From a virus (Duplodnaviria > Caudoviricetes), in the IMG/VR virus record IMGVR_UViG_3300032218_003007, positions 1 to 64,000 of that record: 64,000 bases of DNA; one strand, written 5' to 3'. The position numbers and the translations under genes are program-made. Shown here one piece after another: positions 52,284 to 59,227 of this stretch; positions within the stretch are counted from its first letter, which is position 1, and each line of letters starts with the position of its first letter. The notes under the pieces are model-generated. The model did not search any database and had not been told where the DNA came from. It saw nothing but the letters and a program-made list of their open reading frames with translations.

Positions 52284-52625
52284 TCAATAGTCTATAGTTG
52301 CATAACTGGTTACGTGACCAGTGTTTCCGTCTTGTGTGATTTCTATCACCATTTCTCTGTTAAAGAATTTATTGGTCAATAGGAGATAAAGCTCGTCAGA
52401 CATATCATTGTGTACTTTTAAAGATCCATCATAATATAATGATTCGATCCATGTTTTCAACTCTATTTCAGATGAGATTTGCCTATCTGTATTTTCGATG
52501 TAGATTTTGATCTGTCTGAGTATTTTTGGTTCATATGAATCTGCTAGACAGACTGCGGTCACGATCATTCTTTTAGATCTTGACTTGATTTGCTCTAGCA
52601 GTGCTCGTTCCTGCATGTTAATCAT
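52284..52625 (-). CDS. Degenerate T-fold (QueD-paralogue/DpdL-like) protein lacking the His cluster
   Basis: Coupled to the TGT-like gene by ATGA. Keeps DR.I...LK.W.ESLY...MSD.LY...IEI.QDGNTG, recalled from phage QueD paralogues, but has no HxH/HRH metal motif. Confidence 0.5.
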   Translation of the reverse strand: MINMQERALLEQIKSRSKRMIVTAVCLADSYEPKILRQIKIYIENTDRQISSEIELKTWIESLYYDGSLKVHNDMSDELYLLLTNKFFNREMVIEITQDGNTGHVTSYATIDY

Positions 52626-54280
52626 ACTTGACTAAACAAATCATTGAATGTTGAATGAATCTCAGGTTTATCAGAATCAATTTTTTCTAGATCGTTGGTC
52701 CAAGCATTGATATCTTGTTCAAAGTGTTGATTATACATTGTACTAGAGTTAATAGTTTTTTTACCAATGTTCCCACTTACACCAAGAATATTCATCCAAA
52801 AACTTCCATACCGATCAATGATCTCTAATGATTTAGCTTTGGTAGGAGCAGCGAAAACTTTTTCGATAACATCAGATACATATTCGTGATCTCCGCGAAT
52901 ATTTCTCAGCATTGCTGGATATCTACCATCGTCATATTCACGATTAGCCCGCTGTACAGATTCAATATGCATCCACACATTGTGCGCCTGCAGCAGCGGA
53001 TACGTAAAACCGTCCCAACTATTGTTAGTGCGAGTACCTACACACATATCGCTGATTTTAAGCCTAGAAGTGACCGGACTATCCTCAAAATGCCCGAAAT
53101 GATCCAAATAATCCGTGATTGCTACATCTCTGACGCTACGTGTATCTTTTGCATATTTGTGATTATCAATATGACGAGTCATTCGATAAGTCCACTTGGC
53201 AGCATCTTTCAAATCAATATGATGATAAATCTGTCCAGTTGCTGCTGCGAGAAAAGGACTCGCACAGTCAAAACTGATGGTAAAATCAGGATTCCAATGA
53301 CGTCGAATACTACGCTGCATCGCAGTGAGTAATACTGCCCACTCTAACCTACTAATACCCAACAAATGCATCCAATCATGCAATCCTTGTTCTAACAAGC
53401 CGTCGTAGCGAAGTAATACCAAACGCTTAAGCAACAAATGTACATCACATTTGTTTTGTCCGCCCATTGCCCATCCATCGAAATGGCGACCAGGATATTT
53501 CTTGGGATCACAATAATGTTTCATAGTATCATACCAGATTTCTGCAGATGCGTGGTTAATGCCATGCAACACATTCAGAAACTTGGTACCACCGTTGTCC
53601 TTGCCTTTGCGATTGGCAATGAAATATTCGTTATTGTATTTGGTGCCGTCTACTGCTTCTTTGAGAGTGGTAACGCAGGTTGCTTTCACCGCATTAGGAT
53701 CACGAATGATCCAATTAGGAATATCTAGTGTCATACTATAATCGGCAACGGTGTCTAGCCAGGTAAGAATCTGAGTTCGTTTATCATCAGCAGCTTTTAG
53801 CTTGTTCAACTGTTGCTGATAAGGATCAACTTGCACAATCTTTTTGCCTTTTTTAATGCTTACGGGGCCTGCAGACATTAAATCATTCAGAGTTTTCTTG
53901 ACTTCTGAACTATTGGGATCTCTCCAATCACCAGCCCACACACCTTTGCCAATCTGAAAGCCGCCGGAATCACCTACAATAAATGAACCTGGCTCTCGAT
54001 TGCGAATCATGTCTTCACTTTCATCAAATTTAGATACATCTAGATTTACATGTCCACCAGAACTCAAGGTCCAACGATATGGAAACAGTGCTTTCTTACT
54101 GTTAAGCCAATTCAATTGTTCTAAATCTTGAATTTGCGCAGGAAATCTGGCTGGATTTACAGCATTTTTAAATCTTTGTTCTGAAATAATTGATGAAAAC
54201 GACGGACTCAATGCAGGCAGAAAGATTGCATAATCCTTCTGCTTGGCTGTCAAGTTATCTTGTGGATATAGATCGGACAT
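52622..54280 (-). CDS. dpdA: TGT-fold DNA guanine transglycosylase (DpdA-like)
   Basis: GDSGGFQ, MTLDIP, GWAMGG, MHLLG and ISFDCASP TGT motifs; clustered with folE/queD/queE and replication genes. Start reassigned to MSDLY (54280). Confidence 0.8.
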   Translation of the reverse strand: MSDLYPQDNLTAKQKDYAIFLPALSPSFSSIISEQRFKNAVNPARFPAQIQDLEQLNWLNSKKALFPYRWTLSSGGHVNLDVSKFDESEDMIRNREPGSFIVGDSGGFQIGKGVWAGDWRDPNSSEVKKTLNDLMSAGPVSIKKGKKIVQVDPYQQQLNKLKAADDKRTQILTWLDTVADYSMTLDIPNWIIRDPNAVKATCVTTLKEAVDGTKYNNEYFIANRKGKDNGGTKFLNVLHGINHASAEIWYDTMKHYCDPKKYPGRHFDGWAMGGQNKCDVHLLLKRLVLLRYDGLLEQGLHDWMHLLGISRLEWAVLLTAMQRSIRRHWNPDFTISFDCASPFLAAATGQIYHHIDLKDAAKWTYRMTRHIDNHKYAKDTRSVRDVAITDYLDHFGHFEDSPVTSRLKISDMCVGTRTNNSWDGFTYPLLQAHNVWMHIESVQRANREYDDGRYPAMLRNIRGDHEYVSDVIEKVFAAPTKAKSLEIIDRYGSFWMNILGVSGNIGKKTINSSTMYNQHFEQDINAWTNDLEKIDSDKPEIHSTFNDLFSQV

Positions 54281-54281
54281 G

Positions 54282-55019
54282 TTATTTGGTCTGTGCTGGG
54301 ATGATGTACTCATAATCAGCGATTCCAGTATCGACTGTGATCTTGGCTGCACCCTCATCGCTGAACTTGAAGGTTTTATCGCCTGGCAAATTAAGAATGG
54401 TAATCACCGTGTTAACAGGCCATAACCAACCTTTGCTCAGATTTCCGCTAACATTAGGTTCAAATACAAAACTACCAGCATTGTTTGAAGGATCACCAAA
54501 ATAGAACTTCAGTGAGCCATTTTCAGTCTTGGCCATAAAAGTAGTTTCGTCACTGTTGGCCGATGCTTGAGCCTTTAGACGCTGCAAACCTAGAACACTA
54601 GGAGCGATATCTACATTCCATTTCACGCCTTTGAACTTGACGCCTTTGAGCTTTTCGTTCACGACCTTGCTGTTCATCAAACGATAATCATTTTTGAAAT
54701 CACCGTGCTTGTTTTCAAAATGAACACCGCTAAGCATATCTTCGCCTGTGTCTTCATCTTTCTTATAAGTCATGGTAATGTTTGCATCTTCACGATATTC
54801 GTCGATATTTAGAATAGTATTCAATCGAGATAGATTTGGTACACCAAATACGCCTTCAAATTCAGCGATTGGTGCTTTGAATTTGCCTTCGATGATTACT
54901 GTTCTATCTTCTGATACAGCGTTGATCAGTGTTTCTTCTGCAGAACCAGTGATCTTGAGCAGGTCAACTTTATTAAGTCCATAAGTATACTGCACTATAT
55001 TCTTGAGTATGTCTTTCAT
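54282..55019 (-). CDS. gp45: DNA polymerase sliding clamp (gp45/PCNA-like)
   Basis: 245 aa directly downstream of the polymerase; clamp-like pattern ending YEYIIPAQTK; GGAG RBS. Confidence 0.7.
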   Translation of the reverse strand: MKDILKNIVQYTYGLNKVDLLKITGSAEETLINAVSEDRTVIIEGKFKAPIAEFEGVFGVPNLSRLNTILNIDEYREDANITMTYKKDEDTGEDMLSGVHFENKHGDFKNDYRLMNSKVVNEKLKGVKFKGVKWNVDIAPSVLGLQRLKAQASANSDETTFMAKTENGSLKFYFGDPSNNAGSFVFEPNVSGNLSKGWLWPVNTVITILNLPGDKTFKFSDEGAAKITVDTGIADYEYIIPAQTK

Positions 55020-55084: not shown

Positions 55085-56559
55085 TTATTCAAATGTAAAA
55101 AGACTGCGGAAAGTACTTTTGATATCAGTGCGTGATGTCATGTCCCAATTCAGCACGCCTAATAAATTTTCTACTTTCTGATCAACAATAGTTGATTCCA
55201 TCATATCATCATCGAACGGCAAATCTTTAAACCAAGAAGGAATATTTGATTCATCGATAGGATAACCTACACTTGTATATCCCAGTGGGTTATCCTTGAT
55301 CTTGCAAACAATAGTTTTCATACCGTCCACGATTTTCATACTATAGTTATCGTTGAACATTTGTCTTAGACGATTCCAATTCATTGCAGCACGTACATGT
55401 CCAGGCATATTAGTTTTTCCATGAAGAGTTTCTGCTGTGCTGTATTTGGTAAGATTGTTTACACGTTTAGGAGTTCCTTTCTGCCAAGCAGGAAGATCTT
55501 TAAACATCAATTTGAACTCTCGCACTTTCGCGACAACGGTATCACGTTCAGCGCCGGTCAGCACATCCAACAGAATTTTGCTGAGAAAGTCCTGCACAAT
55601 TTTAGGAGTATCCGAACGCTTTAAGTCTAATCCCATGGCTTTGACTTTTCCAGGTTTGCCATCGAAATCCAGTCGCTTGCCTTCAAGTTCATAGATCAAC
55701 ACAGCATAGCGCTTTTTCTTGATAAACAAACCTTTTTCTGCTACCAGTTCACGACCAGCCTGGATAATACTTCCCATATCTCGTGGGCAATGGCACGCAC
55801 GTTCCATAAACGCCGGAAATGAATCGTTCACAGAATCTGCGATGGTATCATACAGACCTACACAGATATCCTTGTTCCATTCCATGTTGCCTGCTTCTAC
55901 TTCTGACTTCACGATAGGCCATGCTGAGAAATATACAGAGTCTGTGTCACCGTAGATAATGCTGTCACCGACATGATTGTACTCGCCGGCGATGGCTTCA
56001 TTTACAAATGCATCCATGTGTTTGGCAATAATACGACCAGTGAGTGTTGTGCTTTGTCCAATACGATGGTCAAAGAATCTGCAGCCTGCATTTAGAATAG
56101 CGCCATATACATTTATGTTCAGCTAGTTTCACTATTGCTAGCCCGTTTATTAAAAAAACTGCCTCATATTTCTATAAGGATCAGACTATATCACCATCCA
56201 CTAAGTATGGATGCTCCCCATTTCGACTCGCTTGAGTCTACGTCTTTCGACTAGTCGTTGAACCTTCGCATTATGCGCTTGGCTGCTGATTGTCTTCAAC
56301 TTAATGGTAAGAGTTTCCAGCATTTAAAGGAGTTATTCAACCAATGTTGCCATTGGAGGTCGCAATAAGGTTACGAATTTAAGTTGATCTTCTTGACCAA
56401 CTGACGCTTATCCCAGAAAGCTACAGATTGTTTTACTGATTCAGTATCTGAGTGAAAAATTTTGCCGTCTTTTATAACAAGATTATTATTATGGCAAAAC
56501 TCTGTAAGTTCCTCTTTAGTTCCTGATTCCAGTATCGAATGTAACTTATTGAAGTCCAT
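55085..56559 (-). CDS. polB: DNA polymerase B, C-terminal subunit, spliced: join(56559..56373, 56109..55085), 403 aa
   Basis: Removing 56110-56372 restores KKINLNS-L-YGAILNAGCRFFD (motif B) in frame with YGDTDS (motif C) and KKKRY; GAGAGG RBS before ATG 56559. Confidence 0.92.
56110..56372 (-). ncRNA. ORF-less self-splicing group I intron (263 nt, IA2-like)
   Basis: Exon ends in U and intron ends in G. P1 UCGU/GCGA with U-G pair, P2 CCAAUG-GCAA-CAUUGG, P AAAUGCUGGAAA (56314-56325), Q AAUCAGCAGCC (56281-56291), R GUUCAACGACUA (56252-56263), S GAUAUAGUC (56184-56192), plus P7.1, P7.2, P8 and P9 hairpins. Confidence 0.95.
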
Positions 56560-57529
56560 TTATACCTCTCTTAAATAATATTTGTTGTGTATGCGCATCT
56601 TGTATCGCTTTACTTTCAAAAATGATCTCCGGGCAAAAATTATCGGATGATATTCTAATAAGTTGTATCTGATGTTCTACGCATATTTTGTGTTTGATTA
56701 TATCATTTTTTATAGATTGTTCTAACTGATGCCAATATTCTCCATCTACCTCAACTAATAATAACATATCATCTAGAAAAAAATCAAATTTTTTACTACC
56801 CAATACGTATTGTTTTTGGTATCTTATATTTTTACTCACTAAAAACTGTTCGAACTTCTTTTCAAGTTTGGTATCTTTTTTTGAAGGAAAAACAAATCCT
56901 GTTTCTGCTATATGTTCTTTTCTTCTAGAACTTAGTAAATTTAGATATTTTTTAAATTCTTCTTCGTTTTCTCTTCTACGTTTCCAAGAATCTTTTTGCT
57001 TCTGTGTTTTTTTTACTTTGACTTCCTCACTAAGATTGATCTTTTTACCAATTTTCGAATTAGATATTTTTTTCTTAGATTTCTCTGTATGAGGCCCTCT
57101 AGATATTCCTATCTTAGAATCAAAATAACACTGTTGGCATTCCATGCCATCGATAAAGTTTCCAATATTAACTTTATAGACACCGTGCTCTTTACAGCAT
57201 ATTTCTATTTGATCAGTTCTTGTTAAAAGTTTCAACGGCACAGAATGAATGGAGTATTTGTCAGTTTGTGCTTTATCCAGGGCATCTAATGTTATTACCA
57301 ATTTGGTATTTATGTGATCGCGACATCTCTTTTTTGCATCAGGGAGTCTGAATTTTTTACAAATGCTCAACGGTATATTGCACATTTCACAAGTAGGCGG
57401 AGGTTCTTTACGAAGATAAAGTTGTATTGCAGCATTAACATCAAAAATGTTTTTCTCTCCCCCGTAATACTCTTTTAAACGTTTAAATTGGCGAGGATAT
57501 CTTTTTTTAAAATCAATTGTTGAAATCAT
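56546..57529 (-). mobile_element. Free-standing homing endonuclease gene (Zn-ribbon/NUMOD3-like DNA binding plus Vsr/DUF559-like EDxHD nuclease)
   Basis: CEMC, CCKEHG, CQQC; HTEKSKKKIS; TKLEKKF...FDF...VEVDGEYWH...ND; visibly more AT-rich than its flanks; sits inside the polymerase locus. Confidence 0.88.
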
Positions 57530-57562
57530 AATGAAGTATTTATGCTCAACAGTTGATTTTAA
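57507..57562 (-). promoter_or_regulatory. 17-bp hairpin enclosing a late promoter and the endonuclease start codon
   Basis: Arms 57546-57562 and 57507-57523 (one mismatch). The 22-nt loop holds CATAAATA (57537-57544) and the ATG (57527-57529). Confidence 0.85.
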
Positions 57563-57571
57563 TCTTTTTGA

Positions 57572-59227
57572 CTAACTTTTTAATCTATTTGGAATAGGAA
57601 TTCCAGATTCTAAAGAAGTCCATTGTCTTTTAGTTTTCTGAAGTTCTTTGCGTTCTGAATACCAACGCTCTAAAAGACCAGGTATAATACCTTTTACATC
57701 GAATCGAAATATTGTTCCATTCGCGCTCAAAGTCCACGGTTGGTTGCCCTCAAATATCATTCGCCATACTTCATCAGCAGTATGGACTGTGCTATTGCCA
57801 TCTTCCCAGTCAATGGTAATTTCTGTTCCTACTTCTGCATTCATCACAGCCTGGTATTCTAAACTGCCAAATAAACCGTCCCATGCATCTGCAAACGTAG
57901 AACCGATTACTCGTTTGCCATTTATTGTCTTTTCTGCCATCTTTTCGTGAATATAATGATCTGTCATTATTGGGCGAAGTTGACCCACGATAGTTTCTGG
58001 CCCCATATTCAATGCACGCAGAGTTGACGGATAAAGACTGTTTAAGTCGATAGCTCCAATGTATTCATGCATGCCTTTTTTAGGGTGGGCAACATAAGCA
58101 CCAGCAGCTTTGTCATCAGTACTGCCATCTAAATGTTTTTCACTTTTGCGACGATTTGGAACTACCATGCCACGAGCGTGGGCTTCATTGATGATAGCCT
58201 GTTCAGTAACAGCCACTGCCCCCATTGTTGTTTGCAATAACACAGTGTTGTCATGAGCGAGTTCATTGGCAAGTTCCAAAAATCTTAACTTTTTATCTAG
58301 TTTAGCCAACAACATGGTATCTTGACGGTTGTAATCGATGAACTTTTCAAATTCTCGATTGTACAACTGATCTAGAGTTCCTTCATACGCTACTTTGCTG
58401 CCTACATCTTCATATTCACCAATGCTGTCTAGACTATAACTATGGCGTTCTTCGTATGTATACTTGCGATACAGTTGCATGTAGTCTAGATGAACCCGAC
58501 CTATCAGATCGAAGGTAACCATTTCTGCACCAAATCGTTCAAATATTTTTTGTTTGGGATATTGCCCCCATAAACAAAGTCTACGAGTATCGTCTTTGCT
58601 GAGAATCTTGTTTATACGCATAACAGTATACGGAATATCAAAACCTTCTGAGTTCCATCCACTCAAGATATCAGCATCATCAATAAGATCAAGAAAAGTC
58701 TCTAACATGTCTTCTTCTCGATCAAACAAAAAACAGTTGTCAAACTTAGCGCAGATTTCTTCTGCTGTTTGCCAGCTATAAGTTTTAGGTGGCAACACCA
58801 ATGTCACCATCTTTTCCATCCAGTTTAGATATACACTGATGCTGGTTATCTTGTTGAAAGGATCAGTGGTTGGTGCATATCCTCGTTCGCTGTCAAAATC
58901 TACCTCGATGTCGAAGAACGCTGTTTGCAGCTTAGGAGAACTTGCACCTAGATAGTTATCAGCCAAACATCGAAATATTGGATTGATATCTGATTCCCAG
59001 ATTCGTTTACCTGAATTTATCTTGAGTTCTTTTTGAAATTCTTTGTTATTACGAGTACTGAATCTACTCACTGGAGTACCGTAGATACTACGAAATTTTC
59101 CGCGAGGATCATCGTAATAGAACGTGTAATTGGCTGGATATTCTCTGTAAACTCGCTGGCCGTCTATTCGCTCAGCTACATGAATACGATCTTTGGCCCG
59201 ATCATAAAGGGCGTCTACATATGACAT
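57572..59227 (-). CDS. polB: DNA polymerase B, N-terminal subunit (exonuclease, motif A, first fingers helix)
   Basis: FFDIEVD, GWNSEGFDIPY and YNRQD exonuclease motifs, GAYV, DLNSLYPS, GIIPGLLERWYSERKELQK, then a 20-aa non-polymerase tail and stop. Confidence 0.95.
   Translation of the reverse strand: MSYVDALYDRAKDRIHVAERIDGQRVYREYPANYTFYYDDPRGKFRSIYGTPVSRFSTRNNKEFQKELKINSGKRIWESDINPIFRCLADNYLGASSPKLQTAFFDIEVDFDSERGYAPTTDPFNKITSISVYLNWMEKMVTLVLPPKTYSWQTAEEICAKFDNCFLFDREEDMLETFLDLIDDADILSGWNSEGFDIPYTVMRINKILSKDDTRRLCLWGQYPKQKIFERFGAEMVTFDLIGRVHLDYMQLYRKYTYEERHSYSLDSIGEYEDVGSKVAYEGTLDQLYNREFEKFIDYNRQDTMLLAKLDKKLRFLELANELAHDNTVLLQTTMGAVAVTEQAIINEAHARGMVVPNRRKSEKHLDGSTDDKAAGAYVAHPKKGMHEYIGAIDLNSLYPSTLRALNMGPETIVGQLRPIMTDHYIHEKMAEKTINGKRVIGSTFADAWDGLFGSLEYQAVMNAEVGTEITIDWEDGNSTVHTADEVWRMIFEGNQPWTLSANGTIFRFDVKGIIPGLLERWYSERKELQKTKRQWTSLESGIPIPNRLKS

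Follow-up and report, generated by a model that had tools for sequence, protein, structure and literature searches.

A free-standing EDxHD endonuclease gene and a group I intron without an ORF share a split DNA polymerase locus in jumbo phages: a candidate composite selfish cassette

We have analysed a 64,000-nucleotide stretch of viral DNA (the window) that contains the PolB locus of an uncultured jumbo phage. The locus lies on the minus strand and comprises, in order, an N-terminal polymerase gene (polA), a free-standing endonuclease gene, the first exon of polB, an intron and the second exon of polB (Table 1). The parts are closely packed: the polA stop and the endonuclease ATG are 42 nt apart, the endonuclease ORF and the polB ATG overlap by 14 nt, and the endonuclease stop codon lies 173 nt from the intron insertion site, on its upstream side. 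Each polymerase half has a stop or start of its own, and polB has its own ribosome-binding site. An earlier note, made from the sequence of this DNA, had described the intron and the endonuclease as nested within the polymerase gene; we find instead that the two elements are adjacent, with the endonuclease gene outside the intron.

Table 1. Features of the split PolB locus, in window coordinates.
Feature	Position	Strand	Basis
polA, N-terminal polymerase gene, 551 aa, TAG stop	57572..59227	-	exonuclease domain and motif A DLNSLYPS
Hairpin over endonuclease start codon, late-promoter-like CATAAATA in loop	57507..57562	-	folding, -17 kcal/mol
Homing endonuclease gene, EDxHD (Vsr-like), free-standing, 327 aa	56546..57529	-	Pfam, profile and fold matches
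polB Shine-Dalgarno GAGAGG, 5 nt ahead of the polB ATG and within the 3'-terminal part of the endonuclease ORF	56565..56570	-	sequence reading
polB exon 1, 62 codons and Leu codon base 1	56373..56559	-	aligns with Phosso polymerase residues 598-656
ORF-less group I intron, 263 nt	56110..56372	-	Rfam RF00028, 73.7 bits
polB exon 2, Leu codon bases 2-3, 340 codons and stop; motif B YGAILN, motif C YGDTDS	55085..56109	-	Pfam DNA_pol_B

The two halves together cover a B-family polymerase. polA has Pfam matches to DNA_pol_B_exo1 and DNA_pol_B and is 51% identical to residues 1-574 of the Phosso polymerase, while exon 2 of polB is 50% identical to residues 658-1012 of the same protein, the codon split by the intron corresponding to residue 657. 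The last 11-18 residues of polA and the first 37-44 or so residues encoded by exon 1 have no counterpart in unsplit relatives; Phosso and PA5oct possess a native, uninterrupted loop to which these tails are homologous. Polymerase sequence had been thought to resume about 55 nt before the intron. That distance holds for the part shared with unsplit relatives only; the polymerase sequence as such begins again at the polB ATG (56559), 187 nt ahead of the intron.

The endonuclease belongs to the EDxHD (Vsr-like) family, and its nearest solved relative is I-Bth0305I. Besides a C-terminal nuclease domain (residues about 217-300), in which the stretch VEVDGEYWH is similar to the core of Vsr, it has two Cys/His clusters and a basic linker that resembles NUMOD3. 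With a profile of 13 homologues the best sequence match in the PDB is 3r3p (I-Bth0305I; E 7e-6, residues 220-298), and an AlphaFold model (pLDDT 83) retrieves 3r3p as the top Foldseek hit, followed by the Vsr structures 1cw0 and 1vsr. The view that a Vsr-like enzyme splits the polymerase gene is upheld. Pfam matches to Vsr or MTES_1575 are weak and occur in 12-13 of the 13 family members, the enzyme of the window included, and NUMOD3 is matched in five of the 13 (best E 0.004). Across the 13 homologues, which are 46-57% identical to the enzyme of the window, T220, E223, D249, E260, D262, H267 and D276 are invariant, as are both Cys/His (zinc) clusters. Membership of the family and purifying selection on the enzyme are both shown. 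Six of these residues (E223, D249, E260, D262, H267 and D276) fit the composite EDxHD motif, with a residue-to-position assignment that is putative. The start codon of the gene lies in a predicted hairpin (z -4.6; equally good folds in none of 200 shuffles) with the late-promoter-like motif ATAAATA in its loop; 9 of 10 lineages have an ATAAATA motif upstream of the endonuclease start. The endonuclease is, on this ground, probably expressed late in infection.

The intron is a group I intron that encodes no nuclease. A covariance-model search of the Infernal type, as the earlier note had suggested, matches RF00028 at 56162-56382 on the minus strand (E 8e-17), well above the 50-bit cut-off used, and this is the only group I intron that Rfam finds in the 101.6-kb viral contig; homologous introns of relatives score 76.6-104 bits. 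The boundaries, read from the sequence, place the end of exon 1 at ...AAT TCG T (56373), the end of the intron at ...AAATG and the start of exon 2 at TA TAT GGC (56109), so that the predicted splice junction is AATTCGT|TATATGGC. Joining the exons gives T|TA (Leu) and restores the motif KKINLNS-L-YGAILN, whose NS-L-YG agrees with Phosso polymerase residues 655-659 and with every unsplit relative, bearing out the claim that an ORF-less 263-nt intron splits this codon. The ORF list contains no reading frame of homing-endonuclease size inside the intron: a 40-aa chance ORF (56201-56323) lies fully inside it, and a 49-aa plus-strand ORF (55977-56126) reaches it with its 3' end only. In P1, exon TCGT and intron AA pair with TTGCGA, with a U.G pair at the splice site, and a terminal G closes the intron. 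The U.G pair is invariant in 9 of 9 sequences, and the exon-guide pair beside it covaries, being UA in eight and GC in one (L087, in which the exon changes from T to G and the guide from A to C). Across the nine lineages, compensatory changes occur in 26 of the 72 intron pairs, and 97.8% of pairing cells are paired as against 34-44% when partners are slid, values matched by none of 500 shuffles; the intron of the window keeps 70 of the 72 consensus pairs. By this covariation the intron is under structural selection that includes the exon-guide P1 pair. It is predicted to self-splice.

All ten lineages that carry this endonuclease have the same order of polA, endonuclease, 62-aa exon, intron and exon 2 (all homologues examined; the L088 sequence stops within the intron). 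Conversely, neither the endonuclease nor the intron occurs in any of the 66 unsplit loci taken from the viral collection; the unsplit, intron-less polymerase occurs in about 55 related lineages, always with one uniform short linker, and among about 60 unsplit lineages we saw no allele with the intron only. On the polymerase tree, well-supported branches force at least five joint gains or losses. Linkage can be broken by loss of the endonuclease: a 98.7%-identical sister phage retains the split and the intron with the endonuclease deleted, and the endonuclease-deleted sisters L018 and L019 retain exactly the final 69 nt of the endonuclease gene, including the polB Shine-Dalgarno sequence, with a 76-nt gap between the halves in L018. 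Relatives of the endonuclease were drawn solely from a protein collection; the related-locus search of the viral collection gave no confirmed relative, and tblastn against 50,697 cultured phage genomes gave no match. For the whole locus, megablast found in cultured phages only a 51-nt match to the intron core, in one Klebsiella phage. A metagenome scan with an intron-core pattern, which is too general for an unbiased census of the polB intron, returned 120 loci; except for L107 and L114, every one is a different group I intron that lies in a different gene.

In a second clade the slot between the halves has other occupants. It holds an HNH gene in L107, L209 and L221 and a reversed EDxHD gene in L225, while L210 and L114 have the split and the intron and no remnant of an endonuclease; L222 is a split allele that lacks the intron. 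The alleles of L107 and L210 have identical introns (100%) and exons that are 96-97% identical, with the HNH gene in L107 only, and in L210 the polA and polB ORFs overlap cleanly as ATGA. The empty alleles of L210 and L114 suggest that an endonuclease may enter an allele that already bears the intron, and from the variety of the clade, together with L222, it follows that the intron goes with the split slot and not with this EDxHD enzyme in particular. We also note that split inteins with free-standing endonucleases are present at motif C in the relatives L225, L009 and L005.

Evidence for exchange comes from the trio L010, L005 and L086, the only informative one. L010 groups with L086 in the polymerase tree (100/99) but with L005 in the endonuclease tree (99/98), and AU tests reject the conflicting placements (p 9e-5 and 0.03). 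L005 and L010 also share the most similar introns (95%) and first exons (77%) of all pairs, and the endonuclease, exon 1 and intron trees each conflict with the polymerase tree. Sliding-window identity in the close pairs L005/L059 and window/L029 revealed no clear co-conversion tract. Endonucleases of different lineages share only 46-58% amino-acid identity, a divergence so large that most transfers must be old. Judged by these phylogenies, the endonuclease gene and the intron are one mobile block, inherited and exchanged between phages together. The expectation that the two spread jointly and co-occur across related genomes is borne out by strict linkage in 10 diverged lineages, a patchy distribution and exchange of the block.

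The insertion sites of the two elements differ in conservation. Across the intron site, a plausible target for the enzyme, cassette-less alleles carry the near-invariant ATTAAC TTG AAC AGT T^TG TAT GGT GCT, whereas the endonuclease gene is inserted in a variable linker, 75 nt 5' of the intron site. Within the intron-site sequence of cassette-less alleles, the pseudopalindrome AACT-N5-AGTT resembles the type of target preferred by I-Bth0305I, although arms of 4 bp are within chance. Cassette-bearing exons differ from most cassette-less targets by 5-6 bases just 5' of the insertion site (TTA AAT TCG as against TTG AAC AGT), a difference that could confer immunity without the intron. Moreover, elements 75-187 nt apart would be co-converted in nearly every case, so that linkage by itself is no proof that the intron determines immunity.

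We propose, with confidence that is about evenly balanced, that the locus is a composite selfish cassette whose endonuclease cuts cassette-less alleles near motif B, whose block is copied whole and whose intron protects it. The EDxHD gene occupies a surface loop just ahead of motif B and separates PolB into polA and polB, and the two polypeptides would assemble into the polymerase. During co-infection the endonuclease would cut cassette-less polymerase alleles, probably within a stretch of about 100 bp around motif B, and donor-templated repair would copy the polA tail, the endonuclease gene, exon 1 and the intron. The intron would serve as the immunity element, just as MobA of T4 is served by a 50-nt bypass. 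There are precedents for free-standing endonucleases whose cleavage falls where an adjacent ORF-less intron is inserted (PMC3984707; PMC2790892).

An alternative that we consider rather unlikely is trans homing, or hitch-hiking, in which the enzyme cuts elsewhere nearby (at the loop-less junction in unsplit alleles or the empty intercistronic site in alleles that are split already), immunity stems from the endonuclease insertion or from flanking polymorphisms, and the intron is an older resident of motif B that is co-converted passively. Trans and collaborative homing are separated by cleavage at the intron site and by the immunity of intron-containing alleles (PMC2790892). Such hitch-hiking would account for an intron that accompanies the split whether the slot holds an HNH gene, a reversed EDxHD gene or nothing, and for the L107/L210 pair, which with the ATGA overlap of L210 resembles invasion of an allele in which the intron was present before; moreover, MobE of T4 mobilises the nrdB intron while cutting away from its insertion site (PMC2790892). 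However, the linker around the loop-less junction is poorly conserved, so that the junction would make a poor target for spread among polymerases that are only 60-80% identical, the nucleotides at the intron insertion site being, by contrast, highly conserved, and the intron-only unsplit alleles that might be expected from an independent older resident are missing among the roughly 60 unsplit lineages.

It is improbable, in our view, that the locus is a vertical relic, in which split, endonuclease and intron were gained once long ago and then inherited, the patchiness reflecting repeated losses and the endonuclease being inactive or used otherwise. The low identity of the endonucleases between lineages would fit such a history, as would an L005-L010 nucleotide divergence that is similar in the endonuclease and the flanking polymerase, and loss of the endonuclease is directly observed in L018 and L019. 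Against it stand the highly supported incongruence of the endonuclease and polymerase trees, with its rejection in AU tests, the invariance of the catalytic residues and both zinc clusters in 13 homologues, and the uniform short linker of unsplit alleles, which is not what independent deletions would produce; each joint loss of endonuclease block and intron would also take two precise events. That the polymerase is not truly split, the endonuclease ORF lying inside a second intron or a (split) intein from which a single polymerase is restored, recalls the split inteins at motif C of relatives and the known fractured genes with Vsr-like endonucleases (PMC2677866), but we rejected it as extremely improbable, since Rfam finds one intron and Pfam no intein, no intein motifs are present, the 42-nt gap and 14-nt overlap leave no space for a ribozyme core, polA aligns with the Phosso polymerase up to its final residues, as polB does from residue 6 onwards, and L018 has a 76-nt gap and L210 an ATGA overlap at the same place.

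Returning to the composite cassette, its closest analogue is, by organisation, the MobA/gene 60 element of T4, in which an HNH endonuclease gene accompanies the split topoisomerase gene 39/60 and a 50-nt translational bypass (Bonocora et al. 2011, as cited in bioRxiv 10.1101/2022.08.31.505936), the bypass protecting against self-nicking (bioRxiv 10.1101/2022.08.31.505936). As that account describes the T4 element, both systems have an essential gene that a free-standing endonuclease divides into two ORFs bearing extra tails at their ends, and a phenotypically silent insert lies early in the downstream ORF, in a highly conserved stretch. Both, T4 on the same account and PolB in the alleles observed here, behave as a single moving unit of patchy distribution, lose the endonuclease progressively with the split and the insert kept, exchange it for endonucleases of other families and occasionally lose the insert while the split stays. 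They differ in that the T4 element pairs an HNH enzyme with a bypass in a topoisomerase gene, whereas here an EDxHD enzyme is paired with a group I intron in a jumbo-phage PolB gene, and in that the tails of the PolB halves are homologous to a native loop. The PolB cassette has no homology to MobA or to the gene 60 bypass cassette and is an analogue, not a member. To our knowledge, the MobA bypass element is the only gene-splitting endonuclease described as travelling with a separate protective silent insert. It follows the same logic (bioRxiv 10.1101/2022.08.31.505936), and the earlier description of the present arrangement as unusual was overstated. By analogy, the PolB cassette may be regarded as a variant of known composite selfish-DNA cassettes, in which the novelty would lie in a ribozyme that replaces the bypass and in an EDxHD driver.

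Collaborative homing offers a second comparison and rests on work in two phages (PMC3984707): the cyanophage S-PM2 psbA intron and its partner F-CphI (Zeng et al. 2009), and another phage system (Bonocora and Shub 2009), both summarised in PMC3984707 and PMC2988022. The PolB cassette shares with such pairs an ORF-less intron near a free-standing endonuclease gene, as well as co-inheritance and co-mobilisation. In both known pairs the endonuclease gene reportedly lies beside the host gene, whereas in the PolB cassette the gene it splits is also the one interrupted by the intron. For those pairs, according to these summaries, cleavage at the intron insertion site is demonstrated, and it is proposed here for the PolB cassette; F-CphI, in addition, has an Endo VII-type motif (PMC6083498), unlike the EDxHD enzyme of the window. 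MobE and nrdB of T4 are similar to the PolB cassette in that a free-standing endonuclease adjoins an intron that is unable to move alone and is mobilised through co-conversion, but the nick made by MobE is away from the insertion site, and a defunct endonuclease ORF persists in the nrdB intron, whereas the polB intron has no ORF at all.

Members of the EDxHD family and the fractured genes that carry them share with our enzyme the catalytic domain, an N-terminal part (in our enzyme putatively DNA-binding, with possible NUMOD-like motifs), a free-standing gene in a broken DNA-metabolism gene and a hairpin over the start (PMC3239194, PMC2677866). I-Bth0305I, however, is encoded within an intron (PMC3239194, PMC2677866), and in the fractured genes that Dassa et al. 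described the elements used are split inteins, none of which flank the endonuclease at the split of the window. A B-family phage polymerase divided between two genes is also known from the T4-related Aeromonas phages 25 and 44RR, whose gp43 is split as 43A and 43B (Petrov et al., cited by both PMC2988022 and PMC2677866) with a gap that, in these citing accounts, is either filled by an endonuclease gene or empty. The gene in that gap is a GIY-YIG seg gene, and the passages of PMC2988022 and PMC2677866 on these phages mention no intron there.

We tentatively suggest, at odds somewhat short of even, that the intron-interrupted motif B is a protected 'safe harbour' that has repeatedly recruited endonucleases (forward EDxHD, reversed EDxHD and HNH), which would each have settled in the neighbouring split slot independently and would all cut intron-less motif B, with the intron as their shared immunity module. 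If so, the MobA bypass element would have in it a ribozyme-based equivalent, and the stages observed (empty slot, occupied slot, decayed endonuclease and lost intron) would mark steps on the pathway proposed to lead from a free-standing endonuclease and a bare intron to mobile introns. More than 15 natural alleles now provide a comparative series, in which the endonuclease is present, deleted or swapped, the slot is empty, the intron is lost or the polymerase is unsplit, and with which it can be tested whether the intron determines immunity and how free-standing endonucleases and bare introns meet. Lastly, we note that jumbo-phage PolB genes that come in two to four pieces will be miscalled by annotation pipelines, given the split, the intron and, in relatives, the split intein.

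What is new at this locus is a combination, that of an EDxHD endonuclease gene splitting PolB into polA and polB and a bare group I intron in motif B. EDxHD enzymes were known earlier within introns and in split-intein fractured genes (PMC3239194, PMC2677866), and split gp43 was known in Aeromonas phages (PMC2988022, PMC2677866); we did not find the combination in any cultured phage genome searched. The nearest intron-based precedents are collaborative homing pairs and mobE trans homing. The MobA/gene-60 element is closest in logic, and its reported variations are mirrored in the window-type cassette, although the two are not homologous, differing in enzyme family, type of silent insert and host gene.

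The window covers the opening 64 kb of a 101.6-kb viral contig (completeness estimate 29%), and its polymerase is closest, at ~50% identity, to the B-family polymerases of jumbo phages such as Sinorhizobium phage Phosso, Pseudomonas phage PA5oct and Agrobacterium phage Atu_ph07. The Phosso polymerase is a single uninterrupted 1012-aa protein; for PA5oct the annotation shows two genes with a Hef-like endonuclease between them, at another place than in the window. We note that the PA5oct split (L002 3998-9224) is close to motif C rather than at the window's loop, and that the 560-aa 'Hef-like homing endonuclease' between the polymerase genes has DUF723 as its sole Pfam match. Downstream of the window's polymerase are a 245-aa gene (54282-55019), in the position where Phosso has its sliding clamp, and a gene of 578 aa (52622-54358) that has no Pfam match.

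Features of the split polymerase locus in the window, with Phosso residues as reference
Feature	Position	Strand	Description
polA	57572-59227	-	551 aa; aligned with Phosso residues 1-574; TAG stop
Endonuclease ORF	56546-57529	-	327 aa; 42-nt gap from polA
polB exon 1	ATG at 56559	-	62-codon ORF; Phosso residues 598-656; C-terminal ...KKINLNS
Group I intron	56110-56372	-	263 nt; last base G
Rfam group I intron match	56162-56382	-	73.7 bits
polB exon 2		-	begins TA TAT GGC; aligned with Phosso from residue 658

An earlier note had given the coordinates, length and junction of the intron and the Leu codon that it splits (T|TA), all of which are correct on the sequence and the Phosso alignment; the joined exons read NS-L-YGAILN. 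Its group I assignment is borne out by the Rfam model, and P1, as read from the sequence, consists of exon TCGT and intron AA paired with TTGCGA, with U.G at the splice site. The note also had polymerase sequence resume ~55 nt before the intron. The actual point of resumption is the polB ATG, 187 nt upstream of the intron; the ~55-nt point holds only as the start of the part common to unsplit relatives. The last 14 nt of the endonuclease ORF overlap the polB ATG, which is preceded by GAGAGG.

The predicted co-occurrence of intron, endonuclease and split across relatives was found: gene order is identical in every fetched context of an endonuclease homologue, amounting to 10 lineages (the window, L005, L009, L010, L014, L015, L017, L086, L087 and L088, the last with a sequence that stops within the intron), and the gap of ~254-268 nt in endonuclease-bearing lineages is the intron. 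A single uninterrupted polymerase is present in 66 of the 68 viral-collection loci related to exon 2, and these 66 are without the endonuclease, the intron and ~55 codons, those of the polA tail plus the initial 37-44 residues of exon 1. One uniform short linker is common to all unsplit alleles; the extra codons of split alleles have their homologue in a loop that Phosso and PA5oct possess natively. On the polymerase tree, well-supported branches force at least 5 joint gains or losses of the cassette.

On the polymerase backbone L010 pairs with L086 (100/99), but its endonuclease is placed with that of L005 (99/98). Polymerase data reject L010+L005 (AU p 9e-5), and endonuclease data reject L010+L086 (AU p 0.03, for a grouping picked after the tree was seen). 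L005 and L010 are the most similar of all pairs in intron (95%) and exon 1 (77%); for L010 and L086 these identities are 83% and 58%, though their polymerase flanks are 81-83% identical. The tree conflict and the L005-L010 identities mean that endonuclease, exon 1 and intron moved as a unit with respect to the backbone. The comparisons establish the cassette as a composite, horizontally exchanged block. Two loci with 98.7% nucleotide identity to the window, L018 and L019, lack positions 56616-57550, from the interior of the hairpin at the endonuclease start to about codon 304; in both, the split and the intron persist, as do the final 69 nt of the endonuclease gene, where the polB ribosome-binding site lies.

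Two Cys/His clusters are invariant across the 13 endonuclease homologues (46-57% identity to the window's enzyme), which also have in common a basic middle part, with a weak NUMOD3 match in 5 members, and an invariant C-terminal set (T220, E223, D249, E260, D262, H267, D276). The best solved relative of the family profile is I-Bth0305I (3r3p; E 7e-6), which also tops the ranking for the predicted structure (pLDDT 83); the Vsr structures 1cw0 and 1vsr come lower. On the conserved C-terminal residues, the profile match and the structure ranking, the enzyme is a member of the EDxHD family, as defined in PMC3239194 and PMC2677866. A computed hairpin (-17 kcal/mol, z -4.6) encloses its start codon and has CATAAATA in its loop, and in 9 of 10 lineages ATAAATA stands upstream of that codon, features that would link it to T4 late-promoter control. 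The hairpin matches the kind of start-codon control that Dassa et al. describe for free-standing endonucleases in fractured genes and call known from phage genes (PMC2677866).

Homologous introns occupy the same codon in 8 further lineages, 7 of them above the Rfam threshold; the exception, L015, is without a peripheral hairpin. In the alignment of nine introns, compensatory changes occur in 26 of the 72 predicted pairs and pairing holds in 97.8% of cells, against 34-44% with partners slid, and no shuffled control matches these values. The window's intron keeps 70 of the 72 pairs. The exon-guide pair beside the splice site covaries (in L087, exon T to G and guide A to C), and in keeping with what P1 requires the Ser codon is TCG in all intron-bearing exons (GCG in L087); it is AGT in most intron-less relatives. 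These patterns identify the intron as what is predicted to be a conserved ribozyme. Known introns of cultured phages resemble its core at ~72-79% similarity, with no record spanning 80% of it. Within the core, 51 nt (56216-56266) match Klebsiella phage vB_KpnP-Asterion 15407-15457 at 88%; the only annotation there is 'HNH endonuclease', and the match probably marks an unannotated group I intron of that phage. A 2.3-kb metagenome contig (L134:1264-1869) has three copies of the core pattern ~280 nt apart, possibly introns in tandem or an intron-derived element that is repeated.

A pattern scan and its follow-up revealed a second clade, the sister group of Phosso, in which the split is the same and a homologous intron interrupts the same codon (77% identity over the aligned core; Rfam 104 bits). 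Its slot between polA and polB holds a 400-aa HNH endonuclease in L107, L209, L211 and L221 (PHROG homing endonuclease, E 4e-26) or a reversed EDxHD-like gene, intact in L225 and in two pieces in L222, the sole split allele without an intron. The slot is empty in L210, where the polA stop overlaps the polB ATG, and in L114, which has a 32-nt spacer. Unsplit members of this clade have neither intron nor loop. The combination spans two deep jumbo-phage clades with interchangeable endonucleases, and the loci show an endonuclease life cycle of a familiar sort, in which invasion is followed by decay, loss and replacement.

Collaborative homing, in which the cut falls at the intron insertion site, is distinguished from trans homing, in which the endonuclease cuts nearby and the intron is co-converted (PMC2790892). 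Three points speak against collaborative homing: there are clean, empty split-plus-intron alleles, exon polymorphisms adjoining the site could suffice for protection, and tight linkage accounts for co-occurrence without a functional tie. We nevertheless favour collaborative homing, because the two insertions are only 75 bp apart relative to the recipient, because the insertion-site nucleotides are almost invariant in cassette-less alleles and the endonuclease insertion point lies in a variable linker, and because the analogous silent insert is what blocks self-nicking in the MobA element (bioRxiv 10.1101/2022.08.31.505936). In cassette-less L020-L085, whose polymerases are only 60-80% identical, the 27 nt at the insertion site (ATTAAC TTG AAC AGT TTG TAT GGT GCT) are nearly invariant even at synonymous positions, whereas the codons just upstream (FWDKRQLVKK) vary freely at such sites.

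Lastly, several relatives have an additional interruption at motif C (YGDTDS), at L225:3263-5882, L009:7502-9886 and L005:7421-9121, and also in L087, L114, L073 and L216-L221. An exon ending in an N-intein piece is followed by a separate ORF and then by an ORF opening with a C-intein piece that ends ...VHN|S; in L225 the separate ORF encodes 347 aa with a Vsr-like EFNGDYWH motif. This layout is what Dassa et al. describe as a split-intein 'fractured gene', and the L225 polymerase is accordingly encoded in four pieces.
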